NCBI GenBank assembly: GCA_018064745.1
Contig: JAGHUR010000011.1
Span: 6,137-70,136, forward strand
DNA: 64,000 bases
From: Candidatus Fiminaster equi
Lineage (GTDB): Bacteria; Bacillota_I; Bacilli_A; RFN20; CAG-826
Reading direction: 5' to 3'
Positions 7,056 to 9,873 of this stretch are shown here, in pieces (the first letter of the stretch is position 1; every line of letters starts with the position of its first letter). The notes below the pieces were generated by a model. That model made no database searches, was not told the DNA's origin, and saw only the letters and a list, made by a program, of their open reading frames with translations. A program made the position numbers and the translations under genes.

Positions 7056-8444
7056 ATGAAACCTGTAAAAATAGCGTTCATTTCGATTGTTGGAGCACTT
7101 TGCATAACACCGCTTGTGACTTTCACAATTTTTGGTTCGAAAGAAAAAGAGATGAATAGTGAATCAGTAGTGGTTAGAGAAAAATTAACTGCTGAAACCT
7201 GGTTTAATTCGAAGTTTCAAGCATCTTTTGAAGAATGGTGGTCAACTCACTTTCCAGGTAGAACTGGTCTAGTTAGTGCATACAATTCATTGCATTATCA
7301 AATCGAAAGCTCATCGGTTTTAGCAGCAATTGTTGATTTCTTAAGTGGCAACCTTTTTAGCAACAACGTCGACAGAACAAAAGAGTACCCGGAATACTAT
7401 TTTGCTGAAGACAACATTTTTGCCGAAATGAACAAAGTTGTTGCACAGCAAAATTTATCAATTCAGCCGAGTTTTCACGGGAATAATGGCATAATTGTGG
7501 GTAAAAGTGGGTACCTTTACTCTAAAGAATATGTTGACGAATATTACGGTTATTCTCCATCAAATGCAGTAGATGTAGCAGGAATTAATAAGACAATTGA
7601 TGAGATAAAATACATCCAAACAGAACTCAAAAAGATGGGAACCGAAGTTATTTTTGTTATTAGTCCGAACAAGGCTGCAGAAATGGCGGAGTTTGTTCCA
7701 GAATATTACAAAAATGCAAATACCCCATTAGAAAATTACAAACGTCACGTTGAATATTTAAAGGAAGGATTCGTAACTAATGGCGTCAATTTTATTGATA
7801 GCTCACAAGTCTTTAAAGATGTCGGGCTTTTAAACATCTTCCCAAAAACCGGAATTCACTGGAATTATGTTGCAGCATCCGAAGTTGTCTCATTTCTTCT
7901 AAAGAAGTATGAAGTTATTTCAAACACAGAATCTAGACAATTGACAGTGAAATGGGTTAATCAATCTAAGAACCCATACAACATCGGCAATGCCGAACAA
8001 GACATTTATGACATTCTTTATGGATCAATTCCTGAACACAAAAAAGACAGTATTGTGGATGATTATTATTACACGCCGGTATTAGAAACAACCAAAAAAG
8101 ACAAACCAAAACTTAAAGTTTTGATGCAAGGAGACTCTTTCTTAAATCCGTTCAGGGATTGTTTAGCTGATCATGAGATTGCAGATTTAACTTACATGTA
8201 TTACTACGGTGGTAGTTTATTTGAACAACACCCTGAACAAGATGTTTGGAAAAATGGTCCTGGAGCTTGGGAATCTTTGTTACAAAATAGGGATCTTCTA
8301 ATACTAGAAGCTAATGAACAACTTATTAGAAGCAAACACTATGAAGGTTCAAACTGGCTTGAATCTAGAGATCAGGATAAATATTGTCATAACTCAGTAT
8401 ATGACTCATTATATGCTTATTTGAAAGGCAAGGAAGGAAAGTAA
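7056..8444 (+). CDS. DltD/PatB/AlgX-like membrane-anchored SGNH-type protein, partner of the downstream MBOAT
   Basis: 462 aa. N-terminal TM anchor (IAFISIVGALCITPLVTFTIFG). GDSF motif (LMQGDSFLNPF). Stop/start coupled to the MBOAT gene (8444/8446). This gene class is typically paired with AlgI/DltB/PatA. Confidence 0.55.
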   Translation: MKPVKIAFISIVGALCITPLVTFTIFGSKEKEMNSESVVVREKLTAETWFNSKFQASFEEWWSTHFPGRTGLVSAYNSLHYQIESSSVLAAIVDFLSGNLFSNNVDRTKEYPEYYFAEDNIFAEMNKVVAQQNLSIQPSFHGNNGIIVGKSGYLYSKEYVDEYYGYSPSNAVDVAGINKTIDEIKYIQTELKKMGTEVIFVISPNKAAEMAEFVPEYYKNANTPLENYKRHVEYLKEGFVTNGVNFIDSSQVFKDVGLLNIFPKTGIHWNYVAASEVVSFLLKKYEVISNTESRQLTVKWVNQSKNPYNIGNAEQDIYDILYGSIPEHKKDSIVDDYYYTPVLETTKKDKPKLKVLMQGDSFLNPFRDCLADHEIADLTYMYYYGGSLFEQHPEQDVWKNGPGAWESLLQNRDLLILEANEQLIRSKHYEGSNWLESRDQDKYCHNSVYDSLYAYLKGKEGK

Positions 8445-8445
8445 A

Positions 8446-9873
8446 ATGGTATTTTCTTCTTTGGTTTTCTTACTAATATTCCTACCCGTCACTCTAGTGA
8501 TTTATTTTGTTATTCCAAAAAGGTTTATTACTGCAAAAAACATTGTATTGCTGATAGCTTCTTTGCTTTTCTATTCATGGGGCGAACCTAAAGCTATTTT
8601 ACTGATGGTTGCCTCAATTGCAGTTAACTACGTCTTTGGAATTTTGTTAAGTAAATTTGAATCGAAAACCAAAAGAAGAATTATTTTAATTTCATCATTG
8701 GTGTTTAACTTAGGAATGCTTTTCTTCTTCAAATACTTCAATTTTGTAACCGGAAATCGCTTCAAAAACATCGCACTTCCTATAGGAATTTCTTTCTACA
8801 CATTCCAAATTATGTCTTACGTAATTGATGTGTATAGAAAAGGTTGTTCGACACAAAAGAATATTGTTAAGTTGGCATTATATATTTCATTCTTCCCTCA
8901 ACTAATTGCAGGGCCAATTGTTAGATACACCGATATCGAAAAAGAATTAACAGAAAGAGAAACTAAACTTGATGATGTCTTCTATGGAGCACAAAGGTTT
9001 ATTCTTGGACTTTCAAAGAAGGTAATTATTTCAAACTGTGTTGCAGTCATTGCAGACCAAATTTTTGATAAATACCAAATGCAACTTTCTGTAAGCGGAG
9101 GTGCTGCTACCTTGCCTATGTTCGTGGCGTGGTTGGGTGTCATTGCTTACGCAATTCAGTTATTCTTTGACTTCTCTGGTTATTCGGATATGGCAATTGG
9201 CCTTGGTAAAATCTTTGGCTTTAAATTCCCTGAAAACTTCAACTATCCATACGCTGCAACATCCATCCAAGATTTCTGGAGAAGATGGCACATTACTCTT
9301 TCAACATGGTTTAAAGAATACCTTTACATCCCACTAGGTGGTAATAGAAAAGGAAAAGTTAGAACAATAATCAATCTACTAATTGTTTTCGCATTAACTG
9401 GCTTATGGCATGGCGCGTCGTGGACATTTATAGTGTGGGGCTTGTACCACGGATTTTTCATTGTTATCGAACGTATTGGATTCAAAAAAGTTCTTGATAA
9501 ATTACCAAAATTTGTTGGTAGAATTTACACAATTTTTGTAGTTTTAATTGGCTGGGTAATCTTTAGATCACCAGATATGACTTTTGCAGTTAAATACATT
9601 GGTTCATTATTTAATTTTGCAAGACCAGGTTGGACAAACGCCATGGGTATATTTAATACAGACGTCGGAAAATACTCATTAATAATTTTATTATTAGGAA
9701 TTATCTTTTCATTTCCACTTGTGCCAAAAATTAAAAAAGCAATTGAGAACAAGAAGTATGGACTTAATGTTTTAACAATTGCTAGTAGTATTCTAGGAAT
9801 TTTATTACTTGTTTATGCAGTTATGTGCTTAGCAAGTTCTAAATACAACCCATTTATTTATTTCAGATTTTAA
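8446..9873 (+). CDS. MBOAT-family membrane-bound O-acyltransferase (AlgI/DltB/PatA-like)
   Basis: 475 aa polytopic. MBOAT signature with the invariant His (GLWHGASW). Overall similarity to DltB/AlgI. Confidence 0.85.
   Translation: MVFSSLVFLLIFLPVTLVIYFVIPKRFITAKNIVLLIASLLFYSWGEPKAILLMVASIAVNYVFGILLSKFESKTKRRIILISSLVFNLGMLFFFKYFNFVTGNRFKNIALPIGISFYTFQIMSYVIDVYRKGCSTQKNIVKLALYISFFPQLIAGPIVRYTDIEKELTERETKLDDVFYGAQRFILGLSKKVIISNCVAVIADQIFDKYQMQLSVSGGAATLPMFVAWLGVIAYAIQLFFDFSGYSDMAIGLGKIFGFKFPENFNYPYAATSIQDFWRRWHITLSTWFKEYLYIPLGGNRKGKVRTIINLLIVFALTGLWHGASWTFIVWGLYHGFFIVIERIGFKKVLDKLPKFVGRIYTIFVVLIGWVIFRSPDMTFAVKYIGSLFNFARPGWTNAMGIFNTDVGKYSLIILLLGIIFSFPLVPKIKKAIENKKYGLNVLTIASSILGILLLVYAVMCLASSKYNPFIYFRF

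Follow-up and report, generated by a model that had tools for sequence, protein, structure and literature searches.

We analysed a 64-kb stretch of contig JAGHUR010000011.1 of Candidatus Fiminaster equi (hereafter the window, in whose coordinates all positions are given), an organism of the GTDB genus UBA3207, order RFN20, family CAG-826 (PMC8957277). Two plus-strand genes lie here between lysS and dusB, both on the minus strand; beyond dusB, ftsH, tilS, mfd and pth follow, also on the minus strand. The first gene of the pair encodes a protein with the fold of AlgJ, AlgX and PatB1 (hereafter the partner), and the second an MBOAT protein. They are separated by a single nucleotide, with the Shine-Dalgarno-like run GGAAGGAAAG ahead of the MBOAT start, and the MBOAT and dusB genes overlap tail to tail by 11 nt (9863-9873). 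An earlier note made from this sequence alone (the original prediction) had described just such a two-gene, stop/start-coupled plus-strand cassette, with a GDSF motif in the first protein (residues 359-362), a WHG motif in the second (residues 321-323) and the 11-nt overlap with dusB. Its size of 2.8 kb holds for the genes, but the inserted block is somewhat longer, as it takes in the 143 nt upstream of the first gene (Table 1). We are highly confident of the identity of the module and of its insertion at this site. Probably, too, the cassette was acquired horizontally as a self-contained pair of genes for O-acetylation by a relay of the MBOAT plus SGNH-like type.

Table 1. Features of the lysS-dusB region and of other parts of the window.
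Feature	Position	Strand	Basis or remark
Inserted block	6913-9871	+	2,959 bp: 143-nt leader and two genes, nothing else; absent in L001-L004
Non-coding leader of insert, presumed promoter region	6913-7055	+	143 nt, sequence read directly
AlgJ/AlgX/PatB1-fold partner gene	7056-8444	+	462 amino acids, open reading frame (ORF) finder
MBOAT gene	8446-9873	+	475 amino acids, ORF finder
Codons for FIYFRF (residues 470-475, Tyr472; FxYxxF motif)	9853-9870	+	Stop follows directly
Insert-supplied dusB end (Lys-Ile-stop, two sense codons and stop)	9863-9871	-	Junction comparison
dusB	9863-10831	-	TIGR00737, 303.6 bits, above cut-off
Relic of old dusB end, CAA TAA (last sense codon and stop)	6907-6912	-	2.96 kb from present dusB
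Putative lysS promoter, TTGCTT-17 nt-TATACT	6873-6901	-	-35 box 11 nt from left junction
lysS	5362-6897 by ORF finder; probable true ATG 6852, preceded by GAGG	-	NF001756, 679.8 bits, above cut-off
Undecaprenyl-phosphate translocase-like gene (PF04018, DUF368)	18331-19248	+	Conserved in L001-L003
yidC, mnmE	Immediately left of dnaA cluster	-	Gene calls
dnaA-dnaN-recF-gyrB-gyrA	32.7-41.3 kb	+	Origin-side genes

With DusB as the query, 80 dusB loci were retrieved from species-representative genomes, and TilS, FtsH, DusB, LysS and both cassette proteins were mapped onto them. The cassette was found within 8 kb of dusB in none of the 80 loci. In the four closest relatives (L001-L004, DusB 96-50% identical) dusB directly adjoins lysS, and lysS also directly follows dusB in many further Bacilli. 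L001 and L002 are the nearest, with DusB 96% and LysS 99% identical to those of the window, followed by L003 (71% and 81%) and L004 (50% and 61%). Blastn homology with L001 and L002 spans tilS-ftsH-dusB as far as 9872/9873 and restarts at 6912, from where it continues through lysS. In these two genomes the junction, read directly, is AACGAAAT(C/T)CAATAACTTTATTG, and the native dusB 3′ end reads ...AAC GAA AT(C/T) CAA TAA CTTTATTG..., for a C-terminus of ...NEIQ and stop. In the window the minus strand reads ...GATTAG/CAATAACTTAATTG at the left junction (marked by the slash), with CAATAACTTAATTG now at 6912-6899, and the last sense codon and stop of the old dusB are still present there. The DusB C-terminus has been rebuilt, with codons supplied by the insert, from ...NEIQ to ...NEIKI, again followed directly by the stop. 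The insertion point is inside the last sense codon of dusB.

At the other end the MBOAT stop codon (9871-9873) straddles the junction, its T coming from the insert and its AA being native. A junction that lies both inside the last dusB codon and at the MBOAT stop explains the 3′ overlap and the absence of space for a terminator, and the overlap is thus an insertion scar. The C-terminal nonapeptide of the MBOAT protein, YNPFIYFRF followed by the stop, is identical in the distant partner MBOATs of L083, L086 and L087, which indicates that the insertion kept the native MBOAT C-terminus exactly. The relic of the dusB terminus at the far junction argues for a gain in the lineage of the window and not for a loss in the relatives.

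Inspection of the insert and its junctions revealed no recombinase or transposase gene, no terminal inverted repeats, no target-site duplication and no junction microhomology, and Rfam and tRNA scans showed no RNA element and no tRNA integration target near the insert. Homologs of the cassette protein were not found in phage and plasmid collections. An insertion sequence, a transposon, an integron cassette and a prophage were each considered and rejected, the insert consisting of two genes only, with no repeats, duplication or recombinase. The composition of the insert (about 34-35% guanine plus cytosine, GC) shows no anomaly relative to its flanks (about 35-37%). On the simplest reading, one event of illegitimate recombination brought the cassette into a common ancestor of two or more Candidatus Fiminaster lineages.

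The second lineage is represented by contigs L087, L088 and L082, all from other samples, in which both genes are found at the site seen in the window. In L087 and L088 both junctions and the new DusB C-terminus are identical to those of the window. The nucleotide identity between the two lineages is about 81-83% in the cassette genes and 85% across the 8 kb shared with L087, and these shared junctions in a diverged lineage point to one insertion that took place before at least two species-level lineages diverged. The cassette is missing from two further lineages of this genus-level group. The accessory insertion that the original prediction proposed is therefore retained, the cassette being absent from the dusB-lysS site of the four closest relatives and from the 80 dusB loci, while a recent, private event is not, given the identical junctions in a lineage only about 85% identical in DNA. 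Presence of the cassette at this position throughout the clade, which would have spoken against a recent insertion, was not seen in L001-L004.

It could also be supposed that the cassette stood at the site from the start and that the relatives without it have lost it by deletion, since of the four lineages sampled in the genus-level group two have it, and tilS shows some mosaicism. This is extremely improbable in our view: dusB is followed directly by lysS in the outgroups L003 and L004 as well as in many other Bacilli, the displaced dusB codon and stop and the rebuilt DusB C-terminus are the signature of an insertion and not of a precise deletion elsewhere, and the nearest homologs of the cassette are found in Clostridia.

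When the two lineages with the cassette are compared, the ratio of nonsynonymous to synonymous substitution rates (dN/dS) is 0.045 for the partner gene and 0.07 for the MBOAT gene, and 0.025-0.05 for dusB. The cassette is thus comparable with the flanking housekeeping genes, and both of its genes are under purifying selection and hence functional. The synonymous rates of the cassette genes (dS 0.9-1.6) are higher than those of the adjacent dusB and ftsH (about 0.5). Over most of the flanks the window is slightly nearer to L087 than to L001/L002, with one discordant segment in tilS (13613-14012) that is 83% identical to the cassette-free L001/L002 and 75.5% identical to the cassette-bearing L087, a pattern that suggests recombination between lineages. 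Spread of the cassette by homologous recombination cannot be claimed, as a sliding-window comparison gave only this one discordant segment.

Outside the genus, the nearest MBOATs are 58-62% identical and very numerous, and where named they are Clostridia or AlgI proteins. The homologs of the partner are at most 40% identical and come from metagenome-assembled genomes (MAGs) of Ruminococcaceae and Clostridia. In all the contexts that were examined (L083, L086, L087, L089, L091, L093 and L095), an AlgX-like gene adjoins the MBOAT gene. In several Clostridia-type MAGs the pair sits in a syntenic housekeeping setting, with nicotinate phosphoribosyltransferase (NAPRTase) upstream, phosphoglucomutase and TSCPD downstream and sporulation genes nearby. 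Other MAGs have two or three tandem partner paralogs ahead of one MBOAT gene, which parallels the occurrence of AlgJ together with AlgX, and one Bacteroidales genome has the pair in reversed gene order. The donor was likely of a broad Clostridia type, in which the pair is a conserved feature of the chromosome. In the clostridial contigs L091 (3385-8045) and L086 (8001-11265), the tandem AlgJ-like paralogs upstream of the single MBOAT gene are themselves preceded by genes for one to three secreted proteins of 500-1000 amino acids. These have nearly the same signal peptide (MKKFLAI...VSAE), match no Pfam family and might be substrates or accessory factors.

The MBOAT protein is matched by the Pfam MBOAT family at 3e-36 and has about 10 hydrophobic segments. 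It aligns with the DltB structures 8jem and 6bug (E 1e-26) over both histidine motifs, His282 (WRRWH) and His322 (LWHG) corresponding to WNRWH and GFWHG of 8jem. In PatA, the FxYxxF motif was shown by Jones and colleagues to carry the acetyl-tyrosine intermediate; it is common to AlgI, WssH and PatA1, whereas DltB is without the motif and DltX supplies it (PMC12148441). By these sequence features the window protein is classed as an MBOAT of the AlgI/PatA type. The original prediction had left room for a DltB/DltD-like system. Such a system would D-alanylate teichoic acids, and the DltB chains are indeed the best matches of the MBOAT protein among solved structures, with the DltB equivalog TIGR04091 its sole NCBIfam match. 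The score against that model is, however, 179.9 bits for a cut-off of 375, and the protein has two extra C-terminal helices and its own FxYxxF motif, the parts that DltX supplies in Dlt systems. Moreover, no dltA, dltC or dltX is found near the pair, the partner gave no match to the DltD families, and teichoic acid synthesis is predicted to be absent in the host family (see below). A Dlt-type function hence has next to no probability, and the DltB-like and DltD-like labels were dropped.

The partner has a single N-terminal hydrophobic helix (residues ~8-26) with lysines before it, which suggests a type II topology. It is matched by the Pfam ALGX model (PF16822) at 1.3e-10 (41.8 bits for a gathering threshold of 26.5), over profile positions 1-155 of 268 only, and 15 of its 19 close homologs match the same model. 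The DHHW model (PF14286) gave no match to the partner at E≤1 and matched three of the 19 relatives weakly (best 1.8e-4). The fold is circularly permuted and SGNH-like, with a cap, as in the DHHW/PatB1 family, and the motifs recognized in it are VISPNK (201-206), KTGIHW (264-269), QGDSF (358-362) and TYMYY. GKSGYLY, PxK, FPKTGIHWN and QGxSF are invariant among the 19 close sequences. The proposal of a two-component MBOAT plus SGNH-like O-acylation architecture is borne out by the Pfam ALGX and MBOAT matches and the conserved pairing, and the SGNH-like homology expected of the first gene by its ALGX match and the profile results given next.

A profile search of 1.84 billion representatives yielded 3,558 relatives of the partner, 1,537 of them at E≤1e-10. 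The motif G-x-H-W is present in the top 150 representatives (a few with Ser or Ala), and Asp takes the place of its Gly in none of the 150. In a diverse alignment of 74 members, His268 and Ser361 are the only invariant columns; Lys206, Asp248, Gly266, Trp269, Asp316, Gly359, Phe362 and Glu418 are conserved in at least 90%. Searches of the PDB with the partner, its catalytic domain or the 19-sequence profile returned nothing relevant, and only the 74-sequence profile reached PatB1 (4.8e-12), AlgJ (1.6e-11) and AlgX (1e-6). In these alignments Gly266 falls on the catalytic Asp of TDHHW (PatB1), TDTHW (AlgJ) and GDHHW (AlgX), His268 on the catalytic His202 (PatB1), His192 (AlgJ) and His176 (AlgX), Lys206 on the PxK Lys of AlgJ (IVPAKA), and Ser361 on Ser337 of the KDS block of PatB1.

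Judged from these alignments, nucleophile, base and AlgJ signature Lys are all retained in the clade, and the canonical acid has been lost. The partner presumably acts as a Ser-His dyad or by means of another conserved carboxylate, for which Asp248, Asp316 and Glu418 are the candidates on the basis of conservation and predicted strand-end positions; in the model, the conserved residues all lie at the C-terminal ends of predicted strands. From the spacing, Asn420 (in an E-x-N-E block) would occupy the place of the block III Tyr of AlgJ, and Asp316 would be roughly at the place of AlgJ Asp254, in the hydrogen-bond network.

The loss of the Asp (Gly266 in its place) makes it conceivable that the AlgJ-like partner is not the terminal transferase at all but a weakened relay or scaffold, or an esterase, with the true acceptor-modifying enzyme encoded elsewhere or absent. 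In the alginate system AlgJ does not bind the polymer and AlgX is the terminal transferase (PMC4148444), and the two or three tandem paralogs per MBOAT in Clostridia suggest a division of labour. Against this, Ser361 and His268 are the only invariant residues among the 74 members, as would be expected of a working nucleophile-base pair, and purifying selection is strong. The lineage of the window has one partner only, which must suffice for the selected function. Triad alanine variants of AlgJ keep about 20% of the esterase activity (PMC4148444), which makes a dyad chemically plausible. A partner that is not the terminal transferase is therefore considered unlikely.

The preferred reading remains a terminal transferase in an acetyl relay, a mechanism that we regard as likely from the comparison with characterized systems. 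The MBOAT protein would draw the acetyl group from cytoplasmic acetyl-CoA via a transmembrane tunnel (His322) and load it, on the outer side of the membrane, on Tyr472 of its own C-terminal FIYFRF motif. Ser361 of the AlgJ-like, type II-anchored partner, activated by His268, would then accept the group, which the partner would pass to a hydroxyl of an extracytoplasmic glycan. The individual chemical steps are putative, being modelled on PatA/PatB and OatA, and so are the acetyl nature of the acyl group and the acceptor.

Several observations weigh against this reading. The AlgJ signature (R/K)TDTHW is not kept, with Gly266 in place of the triad Asp in the partner and clade-wide. The D193A variant of AlgJ abolishes alginate acetylation in vivo (PMC4148444), and D200A lowers the activity of PatB1 (PMC9487903). 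The loop with His268 is modelled at low confidence (predicted local distance difference test score, pLDDT, ~55), and the G-x-H-W clade is without a biochemically characterized member. Inspection of the leader revealed no clear -35 box or Shine-Dalgarno sequence for the partner gene. The cassette is convergent with dusB and overlaps it with no terminator, so that its expression could be limited. No glycan synthase or glycosyltransferase, and thus no acceptor pathway, was seen in the 64-kb window. Finally, the wall-less status of the host, on which the choice of acceptor turns, is a family-level prediction that holds "in most species" (PMC10868615).

As to that choice, an analysis of 2,650 Bacilli genomes, including UBA3207 genomes, found none of the peptidoglycan genes in most species of CAG-826, which was predicted to be peptidoglycan-deficient and non-sporulating (PMC10868615). 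Losses of teichoic acid genes were reported for the novel families studied, with standard wall and lipoteichoic acid synthesis predicted to be absent (PMC10868615). In the window, tilS directly abuts mfd (and pth) over 13036-17725, with no division or sporulation genes between. In Bacillus subtilis the corresponding interval holds the spoVT-yabM-divIC-spoIIE block, and the abutment fits the reduced genome of a non-sporulating, possibly wall-less organism. With peptidoglycan and teichoic acids predicted to be lacking, the acceptors of the model systems would not be available, and another extracytoplasmic glycan is the most likely target. Candidates include a capsule or exopolysaccharide, a membrane glycolipid or lipoglycan, and a protein-linked glycan. 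On balance we favour an acceptor that is neither peptidoglycan nor teichoic acid; these two polymers, the acceptors of the PatA/PatB and Dlt systems to which the original prediction had likened the cassette, seem unlikely in this host if the family-level prediction holds.

If the host were walled after all, the acceptor could be peptidoglycan or a peptidoglycan-anchored secondary cell wall polysaccharide. The restriction of the deficiency to "most species" of the family leaves room for such a wall, and the undecaprenyl-phosphate translocase-like gene would suit it. Most CAG-826 species encode none of the peptidoglycan genes, however, and the mfd-tilS interval is without the divIC, spoIIE and yabM-type genes of walled Bacilli. 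The partner, for its part, does not contain the TDHHW, KDS and DxRY blocks of PatB1 and is not of the Neisseria PatB/DUF459 type. O-acetylation of a peptidoglycan-based wall is therefore improbable. The undecaprenyl-phosphate translocase-like gene is unexpected in a family predicted to be without peptidoglycan; it adjoins a TetR regulator gene (19241-19807), and it hints that some lipid-carrier-dependent glycan pathway persists in the host.

The leader of the insert may hold the promoter of the cassette. It contains a TATAAT at 7001-7006, which is absent as a conserved element in L087, a perfect 12-nt inverted repeat (6954-6965/7000-7011) and, at the left end of the insert, an AT-rich imperfect palindrome (6918-6952). 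The folding of this palindrome is not significant (z -1.3 to -1.5), and it was rejected as a terminator. A consensus promoter scan upstream of 7056 gave no convincing candidate, the site counts across the region being those expected from shuffling. Conservation with L087, L088 and L082 is restricted to the last ~60 nt of the leader. In this conserved part lie the short palindromes ACGCGT and CACGTG (7020-7045), with TTTACGTAGCGCGTAAA at ~185-205 in L087, and they could be an operator site. On the other side of the left junction, the putative lysS promoter has a counterpart in the cassette-free L001/L002, TTGTTA-17 nt-TATACT. With a conserved promoter-like element of its own, lysS need not depend on read-through from dusB, and the loss of co-transcription need not matter.

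Searches for intrinsic terminators at the convergent MBOAT and dusB ends detected none, the folding there being no better than that of shuffled sequences, in line with the lack of room for terminators noted by the original prediction. The cumulative GC skew has its minimum at ~32 kb, and the window includes oriC. From the position and strand of the dnaA-gyrA cluster, the strand of yidC and mnmE and this minimum, the cassette lies head-on to the leftward replication fork and is opposed to its neighbours, as had also been proposed.

A plus-strand gene at 2934-3752, between gdpP and rpsR/ssb, encodes a 272-amino-acid lipoprotein (lipobox LSSC, no Pfam match) that is 31-37% identical to its positional orthologs (L001 13952-14737; L002 12138-12956); the identity of the flanking GdpP and SSB is 92% and 87%. 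The product appears to be a rapidly evolving surface protein, and its gene, as with the cassette, is on the plus strand and opposed to its neighbours. In L001 an extra gene for a 577-amino-acid lipoprotein (10514-12247), absent in the window and in L002, is found directly downstream of lysS, which points to a second indel hot spot beside lysS in the genus. Elsewhere in the window, a plus-strand gene at 58993-61620 encodes an 875-amino-acid fusion of an Orn/Lys/Arg decarboxylase with a Porphyromonas-type peptidyl-arginine/agmatine deiminase and is followed by a carbon-nitrogen hydrolase gene (61610-62479); together they look like a fused agmatine/putrescine pathway.

MBOAT-SGNH relays are a bacterial route to the acylation of polymers outside the membrane, and such acylations affect lysozyme resistance, S-layer anchoring, biofilm matrix properties and immune recognition. 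The locus amounts to a natural gain experiment: one precisely mapped 2.96-kb insertion separates sister lineages that have the module from those that do not, and comparing them by metagenomics or in culture could connect the module with a phenotype. With a host predicted to be without peptidoglycan and teichoic acids, fewer acceptors come into question for a very large AlgJ-like clade that is common in gut Clostridia, and the clade-wide change of Asp to Gly probes how essential the triad acid is in this fold. A bolder proposal, which we consider doubtful, is that the G-x-H-W clade (more than 1,500 clusters at E≤1e-10, always paired with FxYxxF-bearing MBOATs) forms a third family of permuted SGNH-like O-acyltransferases, with a mechanism of its own that dispenses with the triad Asp and uses a Ser-His dyad or a relocated carboxylate (Asp248, Asp316 or Glu418). 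That the module is kept under strong selection in a bacterium without peptidoglycan and teichoic acids would then imply a natural acceptor of a class new to MBOAT-SGNH systems, such as a membrane glycolipid or lipoglycan or a protein-linked glycan. If the module is merely another exopolysaccharide acetylase, it is ordinary, yet the locus would remain a well-documented example of how horizontal transfer remodels the surface of a gut symbiont with a reduced genome.

By analogy, the nearest mechanistic models are AlgI/AlgJ-AlgX, WssH/WssI, PatA1/PatB1 and PatA/PatB, and by its sequence the module departs from the AlgX/AlgJ and DHHW families in one defining feature, the catalytic Asp. The Dlt system is more remote: it shares a homologous MBOAT core in which both histidines are kept and an extracytoplasmic SGNH-type partner, but DltB is without the C-terminal helices and the Tyr motif, and its donor, D-alanyl-DltC, needs DltA. 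The PatA/PatB systems of Neisseria and Campylobacter offer the relay from MBOAT His to FxYxxF Tyr, SGNH Ser and glycan, and FIYSSF of C. jejuni PatA closely resembles FIYFRF of the window protein. PatB, however, is an SGNH protein of canonical order (DUF459) acting on the N-acetylmuramic acid of peptidoglycan, whereas the partner in the window is of the permuted AlgX type. The PatB-like label of the original prediction accordingly fits Bacillus cereus PatB1, with its permuted AlgX-type fold, and does not fit Neisseria PatB.

PatA1/PatB1 of Bacillus cereus and B. anthracis resembles the module in its Firmicutes origin, in the pairing of an MBOAT with a partner, and in the alignment of the Ser and His. 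It differs in the TDHHW, KDS and DxRY blocks (the last with the oxyanion Arg; PMC9487903), which the partner does not have, just as it has no Pfam DHHW match. The PatB1 acceptor is anchored to peptidoglycan, which is predicted to be absent in this host, and no csaB or S-layer genes are neighbours here. WssH/WssI of Pseudomonas fluorescens likewise couples an MBOAT with an AlgJ-like type II partner with a circularly permuted triad, but WssI has the canonical Asp205-x-His207, and its genes belong to a cellulose synthase operon with WssG (AlgF-like), a context not seen here.

The alginate system of Pseudomonas differs in that its partner keeps the Asp that is Gly here and that block III has a Tyr where the spacing suggests Asn420. 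The insert consists of two genes, with no AlgF and no second partner, the window contains no alg gene or polysaccharide synthase, and the host is of a Gram-positive-derived lineage predicted to be wall-less, at a sequence identity of about 13-15%. AlgI/AlgJ/AlgX nevertheless share with the module an MBOAT beside a type II-anchored, circularly permuted SGNH-like protein, and AlgI has the C-terminal FxYxxF motif. The AlgJ signature ΦΦΦPxK (PMC4148444) is found as VISPNK, with Lys206. The second signature, (R/K)TDTHW, corresponds to KTGIHW, in which Lys, Thr, His and Trp line up. The Ser blocks (G-x-S-[FY]) resemble each other, and the spacing from the Lys through the His and the Ser to block III is nearly equal to that of P. 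putida AlgJ.

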